Source of the DNA: Chitinophagaceae bacterium
GTDB lineage: Bacteria; Bacteroidota; Bacteroidia; Chitinophagales; Chitinophagaceae
Direction: 5' to 3'
Assembly: GCA_004173255.1 (NCBI GenBank)
Contig: SDZZ01000146.1
Location: 1-16,510 of the forward strand
Length of the DNA: 16,510 nucleotides
Below the pieces are notes generated by a model that saw only the letters and a list, made by a program, of their open reading frames with translations, made no database searches and had not been told where the DNA came from. Both the position numbers and the translations under genes were made by a program. Positions within the stretch are counted from its first letter, which is position 1. Each line of letters begins with the position of its first letter. Shown here piece by piece: positions 2,943 to 15,535 of this stretch.

Positions 2943-3065
2943 GGTGAAATATCGTTTGCAAATATTTTTATCCTAATGCAAATATTATTTGCAAATATAA
3001 GTGAAGTTCTCTAGATTTGTTCTACAAAATTTAACCATCGATGGATTTTATGTCCACCATACAGG
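2943..3065. promoter_or_regulatory. Divergent promoter region with three TTTGCAAA-core palindromic operator-like sites
   Basis: TTTGCAAA at 2955-2962, half-site ATGCAAATAT at 2976-2985, and a perfect 12-bp palindrome TATTTGCAAATA at 2986-2997. All lie within an AT-rich intergenic region between the XRE regulator start (2942, minus) and the small ORF/pspA operon (3066, plus). Confidence 0.45.
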
Positions 3066-3266
3066 ATGTTTAAACAGCTGCTGCAGAAAAACCGGGATAT
3101 GATCCATGGTGCCTTTGTGATCAATGAAGAAGGCAACAAGGTCCTGTTCCGGTACACGATGCAGCTGGAAAATATCAATTTCAATGAATTTGAAGGCGCC
3201 ATCAATTCATTGGGTTTGCTGCTGAGCGAGTATTACCAACAAATTATTAATTTTTCAAAATTGTAG
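3066..3266 (+). CDS. Small hypothetical protein (66 aa), probably the first gene of the pspA operon
   Basis: The ORF ends at TAG 3264-3266, 4 bp before the pspA ATG. It is on the same strand and sits right after the operator-bearing promoter. I recognise no family. It overlaps an antisense ORF 3011..3205 that is less plausible. Confidence 0.4.
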   Translation: MFKQLLQKNRDMIHGAFVINEEGNKVLFRYTMQLENINFNEFEGAINSLGLLLSEYYQQIINFSKL

Positions 3267-3270
3267 TATT

Positions 3271-3969
3271 ATGAATCTGTTTAAAAGAATCTTCAGGATC
3301 GGACAGGCTGAAATCCATGCTGCTGTTGAAAAAATGGAAGATCCGGTAAAAATGACCGAGCAGGGGCTGCGCGAACTGAGGGAAGACCTGGCACAGGCGA
3401 CCGAAGCCTATGCCCGCGTGAAGGCCCTGGCCATCCGGACCGAAAATGAAAAAGAAGTTTGCCAGAAAGAGTCGCTGAACTACGCCGAAAAAGCTATATT
3501 GATCATGCAAAAAGCACAGCATGGCGAAGTGGAAATCGTGAAAGCCGAACAACTGGCCCGTGAAGCACTCTCACTGCGCCGGCAATACTACACGGACTCC
3601 GAAAATCTTGCCGTGCAGGTAGTTGCTCACCAGCAAAGCTCCCAGGAAATGCTGAATAATATCGGCATCCTAAAAGAGAACCTGGCGAAATGGGAAAAAG
3701 AACTGAAAACACTGAAGGCACGGGTGAAAGTGAGCAAGGCCACGCAGCAGGTAAACAAACAACTGGCCCAGCTGGATACGAACGGCACCATTGCCATGCT
3801 GGAACGGATGAAAGAAAAAGTGGAAGACCAGGAAGCCCTGTCGAAAGCCTATGGTGAAATAGCAAGGGATAAACACACCATGAAGGACGAACTGGACAAG
3901 ATCCTGAAAGATGATACCACGTCGATAGAAAAAGACCTGGCTGCGATAAAGACCAAGCTTGGGATGTAG
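3271..3969 (+). CDS. pspA: PspA/IM30 family protein (phage-shock protein A / Vipp1 / LiaH; bacterial ESCRT-III superfamily)
   Basis: 232 aa. The N-terminus MNLFKRIFRIGQAEIHAAVEKMEDPVKMTEQGLRELREDL matches the PspA signature (F-R-x-x-I-x-A-x-x-x-K-x-EDP-x-K-M...). The rest is long heptad-rich helical sequence of typical PspA length. Confidence 0.85.
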   Translation: MNLFKRIFRIGQAEIHAAVEKMEDPVKMTEQGLRELREDLAQATEAYARVKALAIRTENEKEVCQKESLNYAEKAILIMQKAQHGEVEIVKAEQLAREALSLRRQYYTDSENLAVQVVAHQQSSQEMLNNIGILKENLAKWEKELKTLKARVKVSKATQQVNKQLAQLDTNGTIAMLERMKEKVEDQEALSKAYGEIARDKHTMKDELDKILKDDTTSIEKDLAAIKTKLGM

Positions 3970-4003
3970 GGTTGTCGATACCGAAGTGGACATGACCATA
4001 ATA

Positions 4004-4192
4004 TCCCTCCGGGATGACAAAAGCTTGTGAGGTCCCTCCGGGATGACAAACCTCGGGATGTCCCTCCGGAATGACAAAAGCTTGGGAGGTCCCTCCGGGA
4101 TGACAAAAGCTTCAAAGGTCCCTCCGGGATGACAAACCTCGGGATGTCCCTCCGGAATGACAAAAGCTTGTGAGGTCCCTCCGGGATGACAA
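4004..4192. repeat. Tandem repeat array 1: 7 units of about 29 bp (consensus GTCCCTCCGG[G/A]ATGACAAA plus about 10 variable nt)
   Basis: Units begin at about 4004, 4033, 4061, 4090, 4119, 4148 and 4175. The conserved 19-nt core is followed by short variable segments (AGCTTGTGAG, CCTCGGGAT, AGCTTGGGAG, AGCTTCAAAG), several used more than once. A higher-order duplication of about 86 bp is visible. The array lies between the pspA stop (3969) and the nfeD start (4254). Confidence 0.9.
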
Positions 4193-4253
4193 GTCCCATC
4201 GGGGTTACAAACGCGCTGTGAAAGACGAACCGAACACGAACCAAACAACCAAC

Positions 4254-4934
4254 ATGCTCTCCACCTTATCCGAACTACTGTTCCATCCGCTATCCAACGC
4301 TATCATGACTATCCTGTCAGGCATTACGGCGTTGTACTGGATTTTCTCCTTCCTGGCAGGCGACTTCCTGGGTGATATGGATTTTGCACCCGAGGTGGAT
4401 GGCGGAATTGGCGTGGATACAGATGCTGATATCGATGCAGGGGAAGCGGGGGGTGAACAATCATTCTTTTCGAAAGCGCTGGAGTTTGTCAACGTGGGCA
4501 AAGTGCCGTTCATGATCGTATACAGCGTGTTTAAATTCATAGCATGGATCATTACACTGCTTAGTTCGGTCGTTTTTAAAATCGCAGACTGGGGCTGGAA
4601 GTCCGCGTTGATCCTGATCCCCGTCTTTATCATCGCATTCCTCATTACCAGGTATGCAACAAAACCATTAGTGAAGATGTACAATGCCATGGGCTATAAC
4701 GGCGAAGAAGCACACGACCTCATTGGCCGGATCGCCAGGATGCGCTCAGCCGTAACCGGCGACAAGATCGGTGCGGCAGAACTGGTGATCAATAACGATG
4801 TGATCCGCATCAATGTCAAAAGCAAATCGGGCGACCCTATCAACTACAACTCCGAAGTCATGATCGCTGACGAATCGACCGATAAACGATACTATTACGT
4901 AGTACCCGAAATAACATTAAACAATATCCTTTAA
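4254..4934 (+). CDS. NfeD/YqiJ-like membrane protein (partner of SPFH/flotillin proteins)
   Basis: About 226 aa from ATG 4254 (the track ORF begins at 4170, inside the repeat). It has hydrophobic TM segments (ILSGITALYWIFSFLAG; FMIVYSVFKFIAWIITLLSSVVF; ALILIPVFIIAFLI) and a C-terminal soluble beta-rich region (VTGDKIGAAELVINNDVIRINVKS...) consistent with an NfeD-type OB-fold. It sits immediately upstream of a flotillin gene, as in yqiJ-yqiK and nfeD-floT pairs. Confidence 0.7.
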   Translation: MLSTLSELLFHPLSNAIMTILSGITALYWIFSFLAGDFLGDMDFAPEVDGGIGVDTDADIDAGEAGGEQSFFSKALEFVNVGKVPFMIVYSVFKFIAWIITLLSSVVFKIADWGWKSALILIPVFIIAFLITRYATKPLVKMYNAMGYNGEEAHDLIGRIARMRSAVTGDKIGAAELVINNDVIRINVKSKSGDPINYNSEVMIADESTDKRYYYVVPEITLNNIL

Positions 4935-5016
4935 TAAAAGGGGGATTAACACTCCCGCCTGCCACCGGAACATTCATTCATCAAAACTGATTACTTAACC
5001 ATCAACCTACCTTACC

Positions 5017-7050
5017 ATGTTTGACGCACTAGGCGGAATTACCCTCGTTATTATCGGAAGCGTCGCCTTCCTTGTTTTCATCATCCTCGCTGCATTCGCC
5101 AGCTTCTATAAAAAAATCCCACAGGGAAAGGCAATTGTACGAACCGGTGTGGGCGGCGGTAAAGTCGCTTTCAACCAGGGTATGTATGTGATCCCCATCC
5201 TGCATAAAATGGAGATCATGGACATCTCCGTCAAAAAACTGCAGATCGACCGGATGGAAGGTGAAGGACTGATCTGTAAAGACAATATCCGGGCAGACAT
5301 TAAGGTAGCCTTCTTCGTCCGCGTCAATAAAAGTGTTGAAGACGTCCTGAACGTAGCACAGATCATCGGCACGGAACGAGCCAGCGACACGGAAACACTC
5401 ACCAACCTGTTCGAAGCCAAATTTTCGGAAGCACTGAAAACCGTGGGTAAAAAATTTGACTTCATTTCCCTGTATGAAGCACGCCGGGAATTCAGGAATG
5501 AAATCCTTGATATCATCGGGACCGACCTGAACGGCTACATCCTGGATGATTGTGCCATCGACTACCTGGAACAAACCGAAATGAAATTCCTGAGTCCGGG
5601 TAATATCCTCGATTCGGAAGGCATCCGCAAAATCACCGAACTGACTGCGGCGCAGAATATCAACGCCAACCTGATCCGCCGGGAAGAAGAAAAAGTGATC
5701 AAGAAACAAAACGTGGAAGCACGCGAAGCGATTCTTGAACTGGACCGCCAGCTGGCCGAAAAAGAAGAGAAACAAAAACGCGAGATCGATAACGTTAAGT
5801 CACGCGAGTACGCCGAAACGCTCAAGGTACGGGAAGAAGAACGACTGAAATCGGAAACCGTCCGCATCAAGACTGATGAGAGCCTTGCTGTACAGGAAGA
5901 AAATAAACTACGCCAGGTGATCATCGCTGCAAAAAACAAGGAACGTACCAATGCAGTGGAAACGGAACGTGTGGAAAAAGACCGCGCACTCGAAGCGAAC
6001 GAGCGGGAAAAGATTGTTACCCTGGCACAGATTGAAAAGGAACGCAATATCGAGGTGGAAAAGAAAAATATCCAGGATGTGATCCGCGAAAGGGTTAAAC
6101 TGGAAAAAGGGGTAGCAGAAGAACAGCAAAACATGAAGGACATCGAATCTTTCCGTACCGTAGAGCGTGCGAAAACAGTGGGCATCACCGACGCAAGCAG
6201 GCTGGCCGAAGAAAAACTGATCTACACCGTGAAAGCCGCAGAAGCGGATAAAAAAGCAGCGGGTGAAAAAGCACAACAGATGATCATCGATGCAGAAGCG
6301 AAAAAAGAAGCTTCTGTAAAAGAAGCAGAAGCACGTAAGATACTGGCTGACGCTATGGCGCGCGAAGAAGCCACACTTGGCTTATCTGAAGCAGAAGTAA
6401 TGATTGCCAAAGCCGAAGCGCTCGAACGCCAGGGTATGGTCGATGCAGGCGTAGTAGAAAAAATGGCTGAAGCAAGACGAAAAGAAGGACTCGCCGAAGC
6501 GGAAATAACCCGCGAAAAAGCATTCGCCGAAGCCGCAGGTATATCCGAAAAAGCGGAAGCCATGAAAAAAATGGATGGCGTGGGTAAGGAACACGAAGAA
6601 TTCAAACTGGTACTGCAAAAGGACAAGGAAATTGCACTGGCACATATCAGTATCAACAAGGATATTGCTGTTGCGCAGGCCGACGTACTGGGCACCGCAC
6701 TTAAGACCGCGAAGATCGACATCGTGGGTGGCGAAACCATGTTCTTTCAGAACATCGTGAACCAGATCTCCAACGCCAAAGGGTTCGACCGATTGATCAA
6801 TGAAAGTGAAAATGCAACCGCAATAAAAAATGCCCTGCTGGGCGATAGCGAAGGTGGCAACCCGCTGGAACGCATCCGGAATTTTGCAGAGAAATACAAG
6901 ATCTCTTCAAATGATTTAAAGAACCTGACCATCTCGGGCCTGATCCTGAAGATGCAGTCCAACAGCTCCGATGACGACCGCAATTCGCTGCTCGACCTGA
7001 GCCGGATCGCCAATAGCCTCGGCCTGGCAAACAAGAAGCTGAACGCCTAA
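5017..7050 (+). CDS. Flotillin-like SPFH/band-7 family protein (YqiK/FloT-like)
   Basis: 677 aa. N-terminal TM helix (ITLVIIGSVAFLVFIILAAFA), an SPFH domain (GKAIVRTGVGGGKVAFNQGMYVIPILHKMEIMDISVKKLQI...), then a very long Glu/Ala/Lys-rich coiled-coil flotillin domain (EAEAKKEASVKEAEARKILADAMAREEA...). The antisense ORFs in this span (5562..6188, 6222..6740) are low-complexity artefacts. Confidence 0.9.
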   Translation: MFDALGGITLVIIGSVAFLVFIILAAFASFYKKIPQGKAIVRTGVGGGKVAFNQGMYVIPILHKMEIMDISVKKLQIDRMEGEGLICKDNIRADIKVAFFVRVNKSVEDVLNVAQIIGTERASDTETLTNLFEAKFSEALKTVGKKFDFISLYEARREFRNEILDIIGTDLNGYILDDCAIDYLEQTEMKFLSPGNILDSEGIRKITELTAAQNINANLIRREEEKVIKKQNVEAREAILELDRQLAEKEEKQKREIDNVKSREYAETLKVREEERLKSETVRIKTDESLAVQEENKLRQVIIAAKNKERTNAVETERVEKDRALEANEREKIVTLAQIEKERNIEVEKKNIQDVIRERVKLEKGVAEEQQNMKDIESFRTVERAKTVGITDASRLAEEKLIYTVKAAEADKKAAGEKAQQMIIDAEAKKEASVKEAEARKILADAMAREEATLGLSEAEVMIAKAEALERQGMVDAGVVEKMAEARRKEGLAEAEITREKAFAEAAGISEKAEAMKKMDGVGKEHEEFKLVLQKDKEIALAHISINKDIAVAQADVLGTALKTAKIDIVGGETMFFQNIVNQISNAKGFDRLINESENATAIKNALLGDSEGGNPLERIRNFAEKYKISSNDLKNLTISGLILKMQSNSSDDDRNSLLDLSRIANSLGLANKKLNA

Positions 7051-7067
7051 TACTCCCGGTAAAACGG

Positions 7068-7101
7068 ACAGTAACCGCACCCGCATGGATGCGGTTACTG
7101 T
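7068..7101 (+). terminator. Stem-loop (12-bp perfect stem, 10-nt loop) between flotillin and the giant ATPase gene
   Basis: ACAGTAACCGCA (7068-7079), loop CCCGCATGGA, TGCGGTTACTGT (7090-7101). It begins 18 nt after the flotillin stop and has no clear U-tract. It could be an intrinsic terminator/attenuator or an RNA-processing or stability element. Confidence 0.4.
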
Positions 7102-7131
7102 TACTTACTGACCATACCCCGCGTGATCATC

Positions 7132-10100
7132 ATGGATGTAAAAGATAAAAACCAGGGATCGGCACTCGATTCCGGCACATACGAAATAATCAGGAACAGG
7201 CTCGATGCACAACGGGTCGACCTGGGTGCACGACTGGCGAAGCTGAATGCCGCGCGGCACGAGATCTTCAGCGCAACCGGTTTTGAACTGATCGCCAACC
7301 AGCGGATCACGACTGAAAACCATGGCGAAGCCCGTGGGCTGATTGCCCTGGGTGACCTCTGCATTTTTGGATACAACGTGCATTTTGGCCTCAGGGAAAA
7401 CATAAAACTGAGCGACGTATTCAGCGTTTACCGGTTTGCCAGCGACCATTTTGAACCGCAGCCGTTAACACTCATCGATGACCCGGGATTTATAACCGAC
7501 TTCACTAACCTGTACAAGTACTACCGGGATTCCCTTTTTGCCAAATTCCACCTGGCCGGAAATTACCTGTTCATGATCTTCCAGACCAGCAAAAACCCGG
7601 AAGACAAAAAGGCCTTCAAATGGATGATCAGGGGCAATACGCTGCAGTATGTCGATGATCGCAGCCTGCAGGAAGTGCAGAAAGCCCCGCAACACGACTT
7701 CCACTGGAACCGTACCAGCCTGGAAGACCGCCGGCTCGGTGTTCACCCGCATATCTCCATCCTCGATAAGGTGTTTATCGAAGCCATTGGTGGCGATATC
7801 ACTTTTAAAATTGAAAACAATACAGCCACCGGCCGCGGTATTTATTCCGAACCTGTGATGAACCGGGATCAGCAGCTCGATGATGCAGAATACTATTACG
7901 CCGATCTCGGTAACCTGATCGCCATAAAAATCCGCCCCTACCAGGAGGAAGCACGGTCGTTTATATTCAACATCCGTACCCGCGAAGTCAAACCAATCCG
8001 GATGCTCCTCGATGCGGGCATCCTGCTGCCCGACAATCAGGGTGTCATTTTCCCGAACGGCTACTACCTGCAGAACGGGGAGTATAAAATATTTGAGTCT
8101 GACCTTTCCAATCTCGAATTCATCAGGTCCATCGCGTCGCCCAACGGGGAAGACCTGCTTTACGTCTTTTACCAGGTGCGGCTCAACACATACGTGCTGA
8201 TGTCGTACAATATCATTTCACACCAGGTGGAAACGCCCATCATCTGCAACGGCTTCACCGTTTTTAACGATGGTAAACTGATCTACTTCCGATCCGAACA
8301 GGAGGCAGTACGCCACCACCAGGTGCAGATCTGGCAAACCCCCTACACAGCAGTGCTGCAGGAAAATGAAGCCATGCAGGATAATGTGCTGTTCAAGATC
8401 GGCAACAAGGATATCGTGAGCGCCATGTCGGAAAGCCACGAAATCATGCAGCTGCTGGGCAAGGAAGATTCATTCGAACGTCTCTACGAAGACATCAATA
8501 AAAAAGCCAATGACCTGGTCGACTCCTACTTCTGGATCAGGGATGAAGCAGCATTCAATCTTGCTGCACCACTCGAACAGATCCGGGATATAGCCGCTAC
8601 TGCCATTGACGAATTTGCCCGGGTACAGGCCCAGCGCCAGCATGCCCGCGACACCATGGCCGCCATGCAGAAAAAAGTGGAACAACTGGTGATCGATGTT
8701 AAAAACAGCGTGGTCACTTCCCTCGACCAGCTGGTAAAAATACTGGCGGGCGTTCGTGATATGCAGGGAGCGGTGATCGACCTGTCCAATGTAAAATATA
8801 TCCAGCCCGAACAGGTGGCTAAACTGAAAGAACTACTCGACCATTATAACGGCAGCCTTTCACAGGATACAATCAACTTCCTGCTGAAGGACCAGGCATT
8901 ACAGCCATACGAACAGAAAGTAACCGACCAGAAAGCCGCAGTGGCGAAAGTGACTAAAGTGGTCGAGGCCCAGGAAATTGAAAAAGCAATTACCGGTATT
9001 GCGGGCGAACTCGAAATGCTGATCGATATCCTCAACAGTTTGAAAATCGACGACAGCACCCAAAGCACCCGCATCATCGAGAAAATCTCCCTGATCTTTT
9101 CTTCACTGAATGAAGTGAAAGCCGACCTGGTGCGCAACATCCGCTCACTCCGCAACAAAGAAGCCACCGGTGAATTTTATGCACAGCTTACACTGCTGGA
9201 ACAGGGCATCGTAAGTTTCCTTGACCTGTCCACTACACCCGATAAGGCTGAGAACTATTTTACCAAGGTGAGCGTGCAGATCGAGGAACTGGAATCGCGC
9301 TTCGCTGACTTCCCCGACTTTGTGTTGAAGATCGCCGATAAACGGGACGAGGTTATCAAGGCATTCAACGTTAAAAAAGAAATGCTGGTGGCGGCCATTA
9401 ACAAACGGACCGCTTCGCTTGAACAGATCGGTCTGCGCGTACTGAAAAACATCAGCAACAAGGCCGCGTCTTTTGACAGCAAGGAAAAGATCTATGCCTT
9501 CTTCTCGGCCGACCTGATGATCGGGAAAGTGCGCAGCCTGGCCGAAGAACTGGCTGCACTCGGCGATGTGGCCAAAGCAGAGAATCTCGAAAACCAGTTG
9601 AAGCTGGCGCAGGAAGAGGCATTGCGCAACCTGAAAGATAAAACGGACCTGTTCGTCGACGGGCAGAATATTATTTCACTGGGTGACCACAAATTCGTGG
9701 TGAATAAACAGGTGCTTGACCTCAGTATCATCCGGAAAGACGAAAAATTATTCTATCACCTTACCGGCACCAGTTTTTATAAGGAGGTCAGCGCGGAAAA
9801 CCTGTATCAATACCGCAACATCTGGGAGCAGGAGATCATTTCGGAAAATGCAGCTGTGTACCGCGGCGAATACCTGGCCTACGAAACTTACCTGGCAAGC
9901 CTTTCAGCCGATACAGGATGGGATGCTGTCACATTTATCAATGAACGGGTAGAACGGGATTATACAGCTGCATATCTCAAAGGCGTGCACAATACCGATG
10001 CGCTGGCCATTTACCAGCAGCTGAAAACAATTTTCGATGCACTGGGTATTCTCCGTTTTGCCCCATCGGTGAGGGCTGCGGCACAATTATTCTGGTTCCG

Positions 10101-11976
10101 GCTCGATGTGGCATCACAGGAAAAACTGCAGCATTTAATTACAGCTGCCGCTTCTATCGAAGATAGTTTCCCGGGCAGCCGCCAGTACTCTTTTGTCATT
10201 GATCGTATCAGCAACCAATACAATACCCTGGCGGTTCCAGCCATCGCTTTAGCCGACGCGTCCGATGTTGCCGGATACCTTTACCGCGAATTTGCCACCG
10301 GCCGCAACTTCACTGCCAGCCAGCAGGCGGTTAAAATCAGGAAGGGGTTCAATGATTTTTTACTGTCAAATAAAAAACTCGAACTCTTCAGGCAGGACTC
10401 GGAAAACGGTTCGTTCAGCCTGGAAGAAAAGTTTTTTGTGATCCAGAACTGGCTGCAGGCATTTTTAGCAAAAGATGGTGGCGACCAGTTGTACATTACC
10501 GAGGCTGTATGCCTGCTGCTGTTCCGCGATCATGCCTACCGTGAACGACCGGCCAACGACCACGCAGTGGTGGGCAATCTTAAAGGCAGCCACGGGGTCA
10601 TTGTTGAACAGCAATACCAGCTCCACTTTCATCGCTTCCTGGAAAAAATGTCCGGCTATACCTCTGCTATTGTGCCCGCATTTACGGCGTTCAATCAACT
10701 GAAGACGGAGCTGGCCGCTGCTTATCGCCAGCAACTGCGGATCAACGAATTTGAGCCGCGTGTGCTGAGTTCGTTTGTACGAAACCGGCTTATCAATGAA
10801 ATATATTTCCCGCTCATCGGTGGCAATCTTGCCAAACAGATCGGCAGTGCGGGCGATGATAAACGCACAGCCCGGATGGGCATGTTGCTGCTGGTATCCC
10901 CTCCCGGCTATGGTAAGACCACCTTGATGGAATATCTGTCCCGTACTATGGGATTACATTTTGTAAAAATCAACGGGCCGACTATCGGTCACAGCATTAC
11001 ATCGATCGACCCCGTGGAAGCCACCACCTCCGGTGCCAGGGAAGAACTGAAAAAGATCAACCTGGCCATGGAGATGGCAGACAACGTGATGTTGTATCTC
11101 GACGATATCCAGCACTGCAGTGCCGAGTTCCTGCAGAAGTTTATTTCGCTGGCCGATGGCCAGCGCAAGATGGATGGCATTTTTGAAGGCAACAGCCGCA
11201 CCTACGATCTTCGCGGCAAAAGATTCTGCATTGTGATGGCCGGTAATCCATACACGGAAAGCGGCGAACAATTCAAAATCCCGGACATGCTGGCCAACCG
11301 GGCGGATGTGTACAACCTCGGCGATGTGATCGGTTCATCAGACCAGTTATTTAACCTGAGCCTGGTTGAAAATGCAGTAGCGGAGAACCGTTACCTGCAA
11401 AGGATTACCAACCGGAGTTTTGATGACCTCTATAAACTGGTTGATTACCTGGAAACCGGTGCAGAAATGATGCCGGTGCTGGAAGGCAATTACGTGGGCC
11501 AGGAAGTGGACGATGCGCTGGCTGTATTGAAAAATGTACTGGAAGTACGCAAAGTGGTGATCCAGGTGAACCAGCATTATATCGCCAGCGCTGCCATGAA
11601 AGATAGTTACCGTACAGAACCCGCATTCAAACTGCAGGGCTCTTATCGCAATATGAATAAGATGGTTGGTAAAATTGTACCAATGATGAACCGGCAGGAA
11701 GTGGATACATTAATGCTGTCCCACTATGAAAGCGAATCACAGACGCTCACCTCCGATGCCGAGGCAAACCTGCTGAAGTTAAAAGAGCTGATGGGTAACC
11801 AGTCGGACCAGGAACGCCAGCGCTGGGAACAGATCAAAACCATTTTTCGAAAGAATAATAAGTTCGGCGGACTGGATAGCAGCGACACATCAGGTCAGAT
11901 GCTGATGCAGCTCAGTAGTTTTAATGAACACCTGGAAGCAATTGCGAGTGCAATGCAGAATGGCAAAACAAAATAA
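7132..11976 (+). CDS. Giant (about 1615 aa) uncharacterised protein with a C-terminal MoxR/AAA_5 (dynein-related) type ATPase domain
   Basis: The ORF is 4.85 kb and uninterrupted. The track starts it at GTG 7123, but ATG 7132 is more likely. Walker A is LLLVSPPGYGKTTL (G-Y-G-K-T at nt 10906-10920). Walker B is VMLYLDDIQ (nt about 11091-11111). IVMAGNPYTESGEQFKIPDMLANRADVYNL resembles the MoxR/AAA_5 ATxNP...LPxAxLDRF sensor/arginine region. Before the ATPase there is a roughly 430-aa beta-rich N-terminal region and roughly 800 aa of mostly helical/coiled-coil sequence. After it there is a roughly 200-aa C-terminal tail. Confidence 0.9.
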   Translation: MDVKDKNQGSALDSGTYEIIRNRLDAQRVDLGARLAKLNAARHEIFSATGFELIANQRITTENHGEARGLIALGDLCIFGYNVHFGLRENIKLSDVFSVYRFASDHFEPQPLTLIDDPGFITDFTNLYKYYRDSLFAKFHLAGNYLFMIFQTSKNPEDKKAFKWMIRGNTLQYVDDRSLQEVQKAPQHDFHWNRTSLEDRRLGVHPHISILDKVFIEAIGGDITFKIENNTATGRGIYSEPVMNRDQQLDDAEYYYADLGNLIAIKIRPYQEEARSFIFNIRTREVKPIRMLLDAGILLPDNQGVIFPNGYYLQNGEYKIFESDLSNLEFIRSIASPNGEDLLYVFYQVRLNTYVLMSYNIISHQVETPIICNGFTVFNDGKLIYFRSEQEAVRHHQVQIWQTPYTAVLQENEAMQDNVLFKIGNKDIVSAMSESHEIMQLLGKEDSFERLYEDINKKANDLVDSYFWIRDEAAFNLAAPLEQIRDIAATAIDEFARVQAQRQHARDTMAAMQKKVEQLVIDVKNSVVTSLDQLVKILAGVRDMQGAVIDLSNVKYIQPEQVAKLKELLDHYNGSLSQDTINFLLKDQALQPYEQKVTDQKAAVAKVTKVVEAQEIEKAITGIAGELEMLIDILNSLKIDDSTQSTRIIEKISLIFSSLNEVKADLVRNIRSLRNKEATGEFYAQLTLLEQGIVSFLDLSTTPDKAENYFTKVSVQIEELESRFADFPDFVLKIADKRDEVIKAFNVKKEMLVAAINKRTASLEQIGLRVLKNISNKAASFDSKEKIYAFFSADLMIGKVRSLAEELAALGDVAKAENLENQLKLAQEEALRNLKDKTDLFVDGQNIISLGDHKFVVNKQVLDLSIIRKDEKLFYHLTGTSFYKEVSAENLYQYRNIWEQEIISENAAVYRGEYLAYETYLASLSADTGWDAVTFINERVERDYTAAYLKGVHNTDALAIYQQLKTIFDALGILRFAPSVRAAAQLFWFRLDVASQEKLQHLITAAASIEDSFPGSRQYSFVIDRISNQYNTLAVPAIALADASDVAGYLYREFATGRNFTASQQAVKIRKGFNDFLLSNKKLELFRQDSENGSFSLEEKFFVIQNWLQAFLAKDGGDQLYITEAVCLLLFRDHAYRERPANDHAVVGNLKGSHGVIVEQQYQLHFHRFLEKMSGYTSAIVPAFTAFNQLKTELAAAYRQQLRINEFEPRVLSSFVRNRLINEIYFPLIGGNLAKQIGSAGDDKRTARMGMLLLVSPPGYGKTTLMEYLSRTMGLHFVKINGPTIGHSITSIDPVEATTSGAREELKKINLAMEMADNVMLYLDDIQHCSAEFLQKFISLADGQRKMDGIFEGNSRTYDLRGKRFCIVMAGNPYTESGEQFKIPDMLANRADVYNLGDVIGSSDQLFNLSLVENAVAENRYLQRITNRSFDDLYKLVDYLETGAEMMPVLEGNYVGQEVDDALAVLKNVLEVRKVVIQVNQHYIASAAMKDSYRTEPAFKLQGSYRNMNKMVGKIVPMMNRQEVDTLMLSHYESESQTLTSDAEANLLKLKELMGNQSDQERQRWEQIKTIFRKNNKFGGLDSSDTSGQMLMQLSSFNEHLEAIASAMQNGKTK

Positions 11977-11978
11977 TG

Positions 11979-12225
11979 GTCATCCTGTAAGGATCAGGTT
12001 GTCATCCTGCAAGGATCAGGTGGCGATTGTCATCCTTTAGGGATCAGGTTGTCATCCTGTAAGGATCAGGTTGTCATCCTGAAAGGATCAGGTTGTCATC
12101 CTGTAAGGATCAGGATGCATCCTGTAAGGATCAGGTTGTCATCCTGTAAGGATAAGATTGTCATCCTGCAGGGATCACGTTGTCATCCTGTAAGGATTAG
12201 GTTGTCATCCTGTAAGGATCACTCG
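11979..12225. repeat. Tandem repeat array 2: 11 units of 22 bp (consensus GTCATCCTGTAAGGATCAGGTT)
   Basis: The array is head-to-tail with no spacers. It begins 3 nt after the giant gene's TAA stop. One unit carries a 6-nt insertion (GCGATT), one is 21 nt long, and scattered point variants occur. Each unit contains the small hairpin ATCCT-GTA-AGGAT. The ORF 12049..12273 (+) is a translation artefact of the array. Confidence 0.9.
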
Positions 12226-12232
12226 GCGGTTG

Positions 12233-12718
12233 TCAGATCTTCAGGTTCTTTATGGGCGGACCAACACGCGTAAACCCATGTTCCTGCCGTAATGCTTCCC
12301 GCTGTTCTTCGGTCATATCTTTCAGCACGCCTTGCGCACTTAATTTAAAAAATGCTTCCATCTTGCCTGCGGGCTGGAATCCCATCATCAACTTGGCTTC
12401 GCCTTCACCCACTTTGCAGAATGCATGGGGTACACCGCGCGGGCCAAATACAAAGTCGCCCGGTTTAGCAGTAAAATCCTTGCCGCCTACGCGGAATAAA
12501 AATTCACCGGTCATTACATACCACCATTCGTCCTGCGTGGCATGCACATGATAGGATTCCATCAGCGAAAGCGGCTGGTCCAACCGGTCCTTCCCCGCAT
12601 CCACCTTATACCCTTTTGCATCGCGGTTGAACCGGAACCCGTTCGCCAGGGTTCGCATCGGGACTAACGCAACTGAACCTGCGGCCAGCAGGAGTTTCAT
12701 AAAGCTGTTTCTTTTCAT
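12233..12718 (-). CDS. Secreted cupin-domain protein
   Basis: 161 aa. Signal-peptide-like N-terminus MKRNSFMKLLLAAGSVALVP. Cupin motif 1 is HVHATQDEWWYVMTGE and motif 2 is PGDFVFGPRGVPHAF. Confidence 0.8.
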   Translation of the reverse strand: MKRNSFMKLLLAAGSVALVPMRTLANGFRFNRDAKGYKVDAGKDRLDQPLSLMESYHVHATQDEWWYVMTGEFLFRVGGKDFTAKPGDFVFGPRGVPHAFCKVGEGEAKLMMGFQPAGKMEAFFKLSAQGVLKDMTEEQREALRQEHGFTRVGPPIKNLKI

Positions 12719-12812
12719 TGTCTGTAATTGTGAGGAAAAGCTACGTAATTCCCCGATACAGAAGTATCCCCTCTTCGTGGTAGGATTTCGCGGTTAACCA
12801 ATCCTGAAGAAA

Positions 12813-13724
12813 TTAAAGCACGGCGCCGTCTTGCTGTAAAGAACTCATTGTATACTCCGGCCATGCCCCCTTTTTGGTCGCCACGAACGATCCGAGCTGA
12901 CACGCAAAAGCAAGTGCATCCTGCACTCCCTTCCCATTAATCACCGAATATAGAAACCCCGCCAGGAAAGAATCACCGCTGCCGACCGTATCGGCTACCT
13001 GCACTTTAAAACCCGAATGTGAAGCCCATTCGTCTTTATAACAAACCATTGCACCATTCGCGCCGCGTGTAACCAGCACCGACCTGATCCCGAACTTTTC
13101 CCGTACAAGATTTACCTGGCCTTGCATATCGCCTGCTTGTCCATACCAGCTGCTGATCAGCTCCAGTTCCTCTTCATTCATTTTGAGCAGATCTGCCTGT
13201 TCCATCAGTGTCTCGAGTGTATCGCGCGTATAATGCGGTGCCCGCAGGTTGATGTCCAGGATTTTTTCTTTAGCATGCCCGAGTAACTCGATCAGGGCGG
13301 CACGCGAATCTTCGCGGCGGGCAACCAGGCTTCCGTAAATAAAGTAGGCAGACTCTTCCACCAGTTTCAGCAGCGAGGGAATCACGGTGATATGGTCCCA
13401 TGCTGCTAAATCGGCAAATTCATACTTCATATCGCCGTTTGCATCCGGTGTTGCATTGACCACACCAGTCGGAATGGCCAGATCGACCTGTACATGGGAA
13501 GTATCTACCTGCAGTCCGTGAAGTATCGACATCAGTTCATCGCCCCGTTCATCGGACCCAAGGCGGGTAATGAGTTGCGGATTCAACCCGAGCGTATGCA
13601 GGTGATAGGCTACATTCATGGGTGCACCACCTGGCAAAGCGCCCGTTGGCAGCAGGTCCCAGAGGATCTCACCGAAGCAGACGATGGTCGGTGTATTTTC
13701 AATATGGCTTGTCATGGTGTCCAA
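12813..13724 (-). CDS. PfkB-family carbohydrate kinase (fructokinase/ribokinase-like)
   Basis: 303 aa. The N-terminus has a PfkB-type GG motif context (IVCFGEILWDLLP). The C-terminus has PfkB signature 2 (DTVGSGDSFLAGFL). Confidence 0.85.
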   Translation of the reverse strand: MDTMTSHIENTPTIVCFGEILWDLLPTGALPGGAPMNVAYHLHTLGLNPQLITRLGSDERGDELMSILHGLQVDTSHVQVDLAIPTGVVNATPDANGDMKYEFADLAAWDHITVIPSLLKLVEESAYFIYGSLVARREDSRAALIELLGHAKEKILDINLRAPHYTRDTLETLMEQADLLKMNEEELELISSWYGQAGDMQGQVNLVREKFGIRSVLVTRGANGAMVCYKDEWASHSGFKVQVADTVGSGDSFLAGFLYSVINGKGVQDALAFACQLGSFVATKKGAWPEYTMSSLQQDGAVL

Positions 13725-14614: not shown

Positions 14615-15535
14615 TCAGGCCATCGAGTCCTGATTCTCGGACTGATAGCTATTGGAATCCTGGAAAATGCGCATCTTACTGTACAGGGTCTTTCGGCTGA
14701 TCTTCAGGATTTCAGCGGCTTTGCGTTTGTTATTACGTGTTTCGTACAATGTTTTGCAGATAAGATCATACTCGGCTTTAAGCACTGCTTTTTTAAGGAA
14801 CAACGGGTCGTGCGACTGGTAGGAGCGCACAGCCGCAGGCAGCAGCCGGGGCGCAACAGGTACCCCGTTTTCACCAAGGAACACAGCATCACGCACCAGC
14901 TCCCTCAACTCGTACAGGTTACCTGGCCACGCATAATTGCCCAGTATCTCCATCGCCTCCTCACTGAAACCAGGCACTTCCCGATTCCATTCCAGGTTTG
15001 TTTTTGCAAGGAAGTAGTTCAGGAAAAACTGGATGGTCTTTTTATTATGCCGAAGGGGAGGTATAGCGAGTGTGTTTTTTTCCGGTATGACAGCCAGCTG
15101 CTCGTGGGGGCTACGTGTGCCCCCGGTTTTACTGAGGCCGGTTATTATGCGGCACTGCAGGACATCAGAGATTCGGGGCAGGAACTGTTCCTGTTCCTCG
15201 AAGGGCAACTCGCTAAAATTATTCAGCCACACCGTACCGCCCCGGATGGATTCCAGGAGTCCCTCATCGGCCAGTTTCTGTAACTCCGCAAATTCCCTGC
15301 GAATAGGCTGCGAAAGCTCTACCAGCGCAGGATACGCAGCCGAGGTGATGCAGTTGATTATAAGGAATGGCCGCTCGTTGCGCTCACTCAGGTCATGGAT
15401 AAGTTCAGCAATCCATTCCCTTCCTGAATCTTTGGGCCCGGCCAGTATCACCGGCAGGTCATTAGCAGCAATCGTGTTGACCTGTTCCACAAAACCCGGT
15501 ATCATTACCTGGGTATTATTCATTTCTGTTTCCAT
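14615..15535 (-). CDS. Sigma54-activator (NtrC/EBP)-like regulator with degenerate ATPase motifs and C-terminal Fis-type HTH. It has no receiver domain
   Basis: 306 aa. YAWPGNLYELRELV matches the EBP Y-x-WPGN-x-REL motif. The C-terminal AEILKISRKTLYSKMR is a Fis-type HTH. Walker A is GPKDSGRE (versus GESGTGKE) and Walker B is WLNNF (versus FLDEI). There is no GAFTGA motif, so it probably cannot hydrolyse ATP or contact sigma54. Confidence 0.75.
   Translation of the reverse strand: METEMNNTQVMIPGFVEQVNTIAANDLPVILAGPKDSGREWIAELIHDLSERNERPFLIINCITSAAYPALVELSQPIRREFAELQKLADEGLLESIRGGTVWLNNFSELPFEEQEQFLPRISDVLQCRIITGLSKTGGTRSPHEQLAVIPEKNTLAIPPLRHNKKTIQFFLNYFLAKTNLEWNREVPGFSEEAMEILGNYAWPGNLYELRELVRDAVFLGENGVPVAPRLLPAAVRSYQSHDPLFLKKAVLKAEYDLICKTLYETRNNKRKAAEILKISRKTLYSKMRIFQDSNSYQSENQDSMA

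Follow-up and report, generated by a model that had tools for sequence, protein, structure and literature searches.

Two tandem arrays in a PspA-ATPase locus

The window analysed here is one complete contig (SDZZ01000146.1, 16,510 nt) of a Chitinophagaceae metagenome-assembled genome (MAG). It carries an operon whose genes encode, in order, PspA/IM30, a YqiJ_N-like membrane protein, a 677-aa protein and a 1615-aa ATPase, followed by convergent cupin, PfkB, 2-hydroxyacid dehydrogenase and sigma-54-activator-like genes. Two tandem arrays of short hairpin-bearing units lie at this locus: array 1 inside the operon and array 2 just after the ATPase gene. The subject of this analysis is array 2 and its relation to a dispersed family of hairpins beginning with TGTCAT, which elsewhere surround small GIY-YIG nuclease genes.

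Array 2 (11979-12231, + strand) was recognised by Tandem Repeats Finder (TRF), direct reading, enrichment of its core and its absence from the orthologous loci L119 and L120. TRF placed it at 11979-12221 with a period of 22, 10.8 copies, 84% matches and a score of 348, and direct reading resolved 11 head-to-tail units at 11979-12231 with the consensus GTCATCCTGTAAGGATCAGGTT, laid out as a TGTCAT flank, a 5-bp stem (ATCCT/AGGAT), a GNA triloop, a C and a 5-nt tail. Eight of the 11 units are 22 nt long; unit 2 (28 nt) carries a 6-nt insertion, unit 7 (21 nt) is missing the T of GTCAT, unit 11 (28 nt) has a longer tail, and the variants GGATAAGATT and GGATTAGG occur in units 8 and 10 respectively. 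The array starts 2 nt past the ATPase stop codon (TAA, 11974-11976), the cupin stop codon (TCA on the + strand, 12233-12235) comes directly after the last unit, and the whole gap between the two convergent stop codons is occupied by the repeat. The initial annotation had described eleven tandem hairpin units with these variants adjoining the ATPase stop, and both TRF and direct reading bore this out.

The hairpin of unit 1 (ATCCT-GTA-AGGAT, 11982-11994, + strand) recurs at the equivalent offset in each unit, as seen by sequence reading, a hairpin scan and folding. The 5-bp/3-nt hairpin ATCCT-GNA-AGGAT is perfect in nine of the 11 units, and in units 3 and 9 an A-to-G change leaves a T.G pair in the stem. 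All loops but one fit GNA (GTA in seven units, GCA in two, GAA in one and TTA in one). Positions 1-8 and 13-16 are invariant across the 22-nt units while the tails vary, and mean pairwise unit identity is 89%. The window contains the 9-mer TTGTCATCC 14 times where 0.20 copies are expected (maximum of two in 200 shuffles), and 9/11 units of array 2 and 5/7 units of array 1 carry it; hairpin-forming units in the window number 15. The repetition of array 2 is far above chance level. It does not have the make-up of an array of clustered regularly interspaced short palindromic repeats: its units abut without spacers, and no cas-like domain was found among the window proteins.

Array 1 (4004-4192, - strand), identified by TRF and the shared core, lies between the PspA and membrane-protein genes, inside the operon and in the orientation opposite to that of array 2. 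It consists of seven units of 28-29 nt (TTGTCATCCCGGAGGGACC plus a tail) with the triloop GGA, and its stem differs from that of array 2 by a compensated change (TCCC/GGGA versus TCCT/AGGA) around the shared 9-mer core. TRF reported periods of 29 (82% matches) and 86 (96%): the array is made of two 86-nt blocks identical at 82 of 86 positions, a higher-order repeat that indicates block duplication. Slipped-strand evolution, which had been suggested from the degenerate units of array 2, fits this higher-order repeat as well as the copy-number differences among the related arrays described below; a recombinational origin would fit them too.

Comparison with orthologous loci

Homologues of the window ATPase number in the thousands in Bacteroidota, and five orthologous loci (L119, L120, L138, L139 and L140; 89 kb in total) were compared with the window. 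In L119 (ATPase 88% identical) only 3 nt separate the convergent stop codons, in L120 (ATPase 79% identical) 27 nt do, and neither gap contains a repeat; the gene order of both is otherwise that of the window operon. A scan for TGTCAT-hairpins found zero copies in the five loci. The nearest relatives (L119 and L120) thus have no array whose units could be counted, and it is in the wider family that copy number is seen to vary. Because relatives with the same gene order do without the repeat, array 2 is, judged by this comparison, a recent, lineage-specific insertion rather than a conserved or designed component of the operon; and because the cupin C-terminus is intact, the insertion sits precisely between the two stop codons.

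Two further candidates were considered and rejected. The idea that the two arrays delimit a composite mobile element is contradicted by the enclosed genes, which are syntenic in the array-less relatives, and by the outward-facing arrays, as against the inward-facing ones at the GIY-YIG genes described below. A sigma-54 enhancer or iteron role was discarded since no promoter consensus is present and relatives lack the arrays.

The operon genes were assigned as follows. The PspA/IM30 gene (3271-3969, + strand) is the first conserved operon gene, with array 1 after it (Pfam; synteny in L120, L139 and L140). Downstream of array 1 lies the YqiJ_N-like membrane-protein gene (4305-4934, + strand; Pfam), whose start was set by homology to L120 (tblastn, 79% identity from 4305). 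The gene for the 677-aa protein (5017-7050, + strand) has no Pfam match and is a conserved operon member by synteny. The ATPase gene (7129-11976, + strand; DUF3686/DUF7902/AAA by Pfam) encodes 1615 aa as deposited, 100% identical to P0001. The cupin gene (12233-12718, - strand) is convergent, its stop abutting array 2, and was assigned by Pfam, translation and tblastn against the L120 cupin.

Several side observations concern these genes and gaps. At the site of array 1, the L120 gap between the PspA and membrane-protein genes measures 122 nt and contains no repeat; in L140, a relative from the Joint Genome Institute (JGI) data, the same gap holds an unrelated AT-rich array (3424-3606, about seven copies of a ~24-nt period, consensus CAAATATTTGCCTAATCACTTAAA). 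This gap may be a repeat hot spot, or a place where a spacer is tolerated. The cupin gene lacks ~30 barrel-internal residues relative to L120 and L119 (161 versus 189-191 aa) with both ends intact, which may reflect gene decay or an assembly deletion. In relatives a 130-aa CesT_Tir_1-like gene stands before pspA; here just its C-terminal 67 codons remain, at 3066-3266, and this remnant matches L120 at 97% identity, a far closer match than the 79% seen for the ATPase. The sigma-54 activator-like gene (14615-15535, - strand; 306 aa, AAA plus HTH_8 by Pfam, no receiver domain) recalls PspF by its place near a PspA operon; a sigma-54 promoter consensus was found neither upstream of pspA nor near the operon. 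An HTH_3 gene (Pfam) lies at 2262-2942. Among the ATPase homologues P0004-P0009 (JGI), several close ones are 80-200 aa longer (1697-1830 aa), and their best BLASTP local alignment covers just 57-64% of the window ATPase, which suggests insertions within the protein in one clade.

A dispersed hairpin family and small GIY-YIG genes

The unit of array 2 resembles a widespread family defined by TGTCAT, a hairpin and ATC (commonest form GTCATCCTGAGCGAAGCGAAGGATC, also written TGTCATCCTGAGCGAAGCGAAGGATC), which occurs as singles, inverted doublets and hypervariable tandem arrays and ranks with the most frequent short repeats of environmental bacterial and phage assemblies. A shared flank, (T)TGTCAY, directly precedes and overlaps the stem in both window arrays and in other lineages: the stem opens with the AT of TGTCAT, and its closing AT has a C after it, giving ATCCT/AGGAT+C in array 2 and (A)TCCC/GGGA+C in array 1. 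Across lineages the stems covary (ATCCT/AGGAT, ATTCT/AGAAT, ATGCT/AGCAT, ATGCCTGA/TCAGGCAT and ACCCCAGC/GCTGGGGT). Tandem G.A pairs and a GAA loop mark the canonical stem, ATCCTGAGC/GCGAAGGAT, within which lies GCGAAGC, an unusually stable DNA mini-hairpin. The window unit can be written as TGTCATCCTG-[TA]-AGGATC against the canonical TGTCATCCTG-[AGCGAAGCGA]-AGGATC; its loops are without the long inner stem (GCGAAGC) of the canonical element. On this alignment the window units would be loop-shortened versions of the widespread element.

Tandem arrays of the family were found in both viral and metagenomic collections. An IMG/VR scan for three spaced TTGTCATCC cores matched 17 contigs, several of them non-coding arrays of TTGTCATCCTGAGC plus a tail that end in a longer hairpin, and the 23-mer GTCATCCTGAGCGAAGCGAAGGA was present in 32 viral contigs, often with an inverted copy, like the REPIN doublets of repetitive extragenic palindromic (REP) sequences. 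A metagenome scan for three spaced TTGTCATCCTG cores matched at least 120 contigs. Of the 138 arrays listed, 109 terminate in a hairpin closed by AGGAy and 45 are accompanied, within 200 nt, by an inverted partner; copy numbers run from 3 to 10. Their periods took all values between 21 and 30 nt, the only range the pattern detects, with a peak at 21-22, at its lower bound. Moreover, whole-hairpin units of ~48 nt occur in Candidatus (Ca.) Faecousia; thus the period is not fixed at 22, even though most sampled arrays lie at 21-22, and the argument that a 22-bp period would set successive sites on one face of the helix is weak. The number of units differs between homologous contigs (L123 versus L137; L279 versus L289).

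The short-loop form of the window also occurs elsewhere. A genome-contig scan with the degenerate pattern GTCATCCTKNARGGATHA returned mostly chance singles in coding DNA and a few true mini-hairpins. Exact TTGTCATCCTGTAAGGATCA was found, among the matches listed, in two Pontibacter species, a Saprospiraceae MAG and two Bacteroidota MAGs; a Chryseobacterium genome carries an inverted mini-hairpin doublet, and L071 is an inverted doublet. Minis with a GTA loop stand beside canonical elements with identical flanks in L199, L038 and L317, in the last as a tandem pair. Whole-hairpin arrays are known from Ca. Faecousia, L106, L038 and L317. The closest architectural match to array 2 is L106 (1-290, at a contig end of a Bacteroidales MAG), with a period of 21 and at least nine units of GTCATCCTyAAAGGATCAAAC. 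In L038 (6218-6420, Saprospiraceae MAG), six TGTCAT-hairpins, which face either way and have loops of the mini or the long type, form a cluster resembling a bacterial interspersed mosaic element (BIME); it occupies the gap between convergent open reading frames (ORFs), one element overlapping a TGA stop, a setting as in the window.

The initial annotation had held that a dispersed repeat lacking locus specificity would speak against a role at this site, and dispersal of this kind was largely what we found: a second array in the same 16.5 kb and a family at unrelated loci and in unrelated phyla. The family was in no RNA or repeat library queried. Rfam 15 gave tRNA-Leu as its sole match over the window, with none at the arrays, and no match over ten loci with canonical elements. 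A megablast of the region against E. coli genomes had no match, and literature searches by sequence, derived peptide and concept found no description of the element.

Clustering of the ORFs of array-bearing loci brought out a ~95-aa GIY-YIG protein (Pfam PF01541): the recurrent element-flanked neighbour was a GIY-YIG gene and not a transposase, no search being aimed at Y1 transposases. In a profile search of all ORFs of at least 60 aa, all six small GIY-YIG ORFs fell in array-bearing metagenome loci (0.67 Mb) and none in 1.33 Mb of others. Five of the six are bracketed by elements in one arrangement: first comes a "stutter" array that points outward, then a hairpin whose end lies 15-60 nt upstream of the ATG, and beyond the gene an inverted hairpin or doublet is followed by a second stutter array, also inverted. 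Bracketed genes are those at L266 735-1076, L273 1409-1768, L275 4120-4482, L283 1278-1547 and L285 4515-4829, and those in L292-L313; their taxa include Ca. Roizmanbacteria, Ca. Faecousia, Porticoccaceae-like bacteria, Sphingobacteriaceae and Cyclobacteriaceae.

Loci picked by the protein alone (P0188, P0121, P0309 and P0306/P0307) were all bracketed by reiterated TGTCAT-hairpins, whose stems vary by lineage yet remain complementary. P0188 of Ca. Faecousia belongs to a cassette within the carbon monoxide dehydrogenase/acetyl-CoA synthase (CODH/ACS) gene cluster, and its ~48-nt units contain the complete hairpin; P0121 is encoded between gyrA and a decarboxylase gene; P0309 comes from a Sphingobacteriaceae MAG, and P0306 and P0307 are two copies in one Cyclobacteriaceae MAG. 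Ca. Faecousia strains at one locus differ in copy number (3 versus 5 upstream, 3 versus 6 downstream), and L302, L303 and L307, where the cassette lies between Pterin_bind and DUF3786 genes, have 3, 5 and 3 upstream units. TGTCAT hexamers concentrate near the GIY-YIG genes: 10 of 10 in L312 lie in 21% of the sequence, and 15 of 26 in L313 in 15%. The protein family has at least 8000 matches at E < 1e-5, many on contigs under 2 kb, and matches the UPF0213 proteins BH0048 and EF2693 in the PDB. UPF0213/YhbQ/YazA proteins belong to the Slx1 family of structure-selective nucleases (PMC7017083). An alignment search of viral contigs for the GIY-YIG protein gave pattern matches, none of which was confirmed by tblastn.

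Interpretation, alternatives and known systems

With the insertion, the family resemblance with compensated stems, the bracketing of GIY-YIG genes and the strain-level change in copy number all observed directly, array 2 is probably best understood as an orphan REP/BIME-like tandem cluster of the TGTCAT-hairpin, a family tied to small GIY-YIG genes. An element would have entered a 3-nt gap between the convergent ATPase and cupin stop codons in this Chitinophagaceae lineage, and would then have been amplified head to tail by replication slippage, unequal recombination or break repair; array 1 would be a second, independent cluster of a sister variant. Elsewhere the element forms the reiterated inverted ends of UPF0213/Slx1-type GIY-YIG genes. 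Its hairpin or cruciform is a likely substrate of a structure-selective nuclease, and cutting followed by repair could both spread the element and alter its copy number, much as RAYTs (REP-associated tyrosine transposases) maintain REP and REPIN sequences. On these terms the array would stand in the PspA-ATPase operon without a conserved function, and any effect on the ATPase mRNA 3' end, such as REP-like protection or interference with ribosomes at the stop codon, would be incidental.

Several results weigh against this interpretation. Most family arrays repeat the 5' arm and tail and not the entire hairpin. Scans for two adjacent window-type units in metagenomes and for TTGTCATCCTGNAAGGATC in viral contigs each gave zero matches, blastn of the array against plasmids and phages gave chance fragments only, and the exact-unit array was not found in JGI metagenomes, IMG/VR, plasmids or phages. 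A single unit folds weakly as DNA (-2.2 kcal/mol, z = -1.6, ViennaRNA), and within it a CCTG/CAGG pairing competes. The loci picked by protein represent a small sample of three independent lineages. A profile search for GIY-YIG ORFs found none in the window, which is why we infer the nuclease link for its arrays: the source genome would encode a cognate GIY-YIG nuclease elsewhere, and genome-wide dispersal of the repeat in the source organism would go beyond the two arrays of this 16.5-kb contig. Recognition or cutting of the hairpin or cruciform by a UPF0213 nuclease is likewise, at each step, our inference.

In the alternative closest to the initial annotation, the array would serve the PspA-ATPase operon at its 3' end and have been selected for that role, either as a reiterated terminator or as a REP-like mRNA stabiliser. 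This alternative draws on the position of the array, which starts 2 nt past the stop and fills the convergent gap; on the fold of the 291-nt array region as RNA, which is better than that of shuffles (-99.2 versus -80.4 kcal/mol, z = -3.8); on the A-to-G changes in units 3 and 9, which preserve a G.U pair on the + strand; and on the general knowledge that in E. coli REP sequences can shield the mRNA upstream of them from 3' exonucleases. However, the same operon in close relatives has gaps of 3 and 27 nt that hold no repeat, and the 23 terminator-like sites (a GC-rich stem with a T run behind it) in 3000-13000 all fall outside 11979-12232. Single hairpins reach about -2 kcal/mol, the centroid structure of the array RNA is almost unpaired, array 1 lies reversed within the operon, and the family occurs at unrelated loci in many phyla. 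Moreover, the GNA-type triloops are on the TGTCAT strand, which is the mRNA strand for array 2 and the antisense strand for array 1. Together these results suggest a feature that would act at the DNA rather than the mRNA level. A terminator or stabiliser as the primary role is therefore unlikely. By analogy with the REPs of E. coli, the ATPase mRNA may still be affected by array 2 at its 3' end; there is no indication of selection for such an effect.

A local minisatellite born of native slippage, its family resemblance being coincidental, is more doubtful still. The native right flank GTCAGATCTTCAGGTT is loosely unit-like, and the lack of an exact copy of the unit array in the collections searched would suit a local origin, but a second array with the same 9-mer core and a compensated stem lies 8 kb away, an identical 20-mer with its TT flank occurs in at least five other Bacteroidota genomes, and mini-hairpins share flanks with canonical elements in L199, L038 and L317. 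The notion of multimeric binding sites divides: the units may be recognition sites of a structure-selective nuclease, whereas it is highly improbable that they are iterated sites through which a transcription factor encoded at the locus, such as the HTH_3 protein or the sigma-54 activator, regulates the psp-like operon or the cupin gene. The invariant core positions 1-8 and 13-16 among varying tails, and the nearby sigma-54 activator-like (14615-15535) and HTH_3 (2262-2942) genes, would favour such a regulator; yet relatives that keep the HTH gene and the operon have no arrays, there is no sigma-54 promoter consensus near the operon, array 2 lies downstream of both flanking genes, and the motif occurs at unrelated loci in unrelated phyla. 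Just as improbable is a short-read assembly artefact, of the copy number or of the array itself. The contig is a 16.5-kb MAG fragment on which, in addition, the CesT-like gene is truncated and the cupin gene has an internal deletion, and tandem repeats are hard to assemble; against this, the units differ from one another (mean identity 89%), which anchors the assembly, the two arrays are different, and comparable arrays appear in many independent assemblies, complete genomes included.

For this locus, the reading of array 2 as an orphan cluster of the TGTCAT-hairpin removes a tempting regulatory story and places the repeat outside the design of the PspA-ATPase operon. In a wider and more tentative sense, somewhat short of an even chance in our estimation, the array could be the footprint of an undescribed class of selfish DNA, in which ~95-aa GIY-YIG genes with reiterated TGTCAT-hairpin ends are accompanied by gene-less hairpins and arrays, a GIY-YIG counterpart of REP/RAYT present in Bacteroidota, Bacillota, Patescibacteria, Pseudomonadota and phage contigs. 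If small UPF0213 nucleases maintain these hairpins, a function would be at hand for an orphan family with YhbQ and YazA as its model-organism members; there would be a second, mechanistically distinct domesticated or selfish nuclease with its own population of extragenic palindromes, and also a source of fast-evolving tandem arrays for strain typing. The motif also affects assemblies and annotation: it breaks contigs, as seen from the many GIY-YIG homologues on contigs shorter than 2 kb, and it probably seeds spurious ORFs.

Among known systems, intrinsic (Rho-independent) terminators share with array 2 the stem-loops just downstream of a stop codon, and differ in having one strong GC-rich stem with a T/U tract in place of eleven weak hairpins that are absent in relatives. 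Bacterial minisatellites, or variable number tandem repeats, resemble it in being built head to tail from units of 10-100 nt, with degenerate copies, higher-order repeats and copy numbers that differ between strains; unlike them, the window unit comes from a dispersed, structured family with a conserved flank and covarying stem, not from arbitrary local sequence. Free-standing GIY-YIG homing endonucleases (I-TevI, and Seg of T4-like phages) are likewise GIY-YIG genes acting as selfish units with possible spread by cleavage and repair, but they have extra DNA-binding domains and long asymmetric sites in specific genes, and they are neither flanked by reiterated hairpins nor accompanied by dispersed gene-less repeats. 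The d(GCGAAGC) mini-hairpin is matched exactly inside the canonical element and more loosely by the GNA triloops of the window (GTA, GCA and GAA, with GGA in array 1); it is a structural motif rather than a genetic element, and formation of a DNA rather than RNA structure here is presumed.

The fullest parallel is with REP, BIME and REPIN sequences and their RAYTs in Enterobacteria and Pseudomonas. REP's gene encodes a Y1 HUH transposase (TnpA-REP), whereas here it is a ~95-aa UPF0213/Slx1-type GIY-YIG nuclease; the conserved flank is TGTCAT instead of GTAG, with no GTAG at the foot of any window unit; the window hairpin (5 bp plus 3 nt) is much shorter than that of REP; and TGTCAT clusters run head to tail, are hypervariable and often repeat the 5' arm only, whereas BIMEs alternate in orientation. 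In both systems, short extragenic hairpins with a conserved 5' flank and stems that covary by lineage are found singly, as inverted doublets or in clusters, and typically follow stop codons or lie between convergent genes, which is where array 2 and the L038 cluster lie; and in both, a nuclease gene bracketed by the hairpins is accompanied by many gene-less copies.

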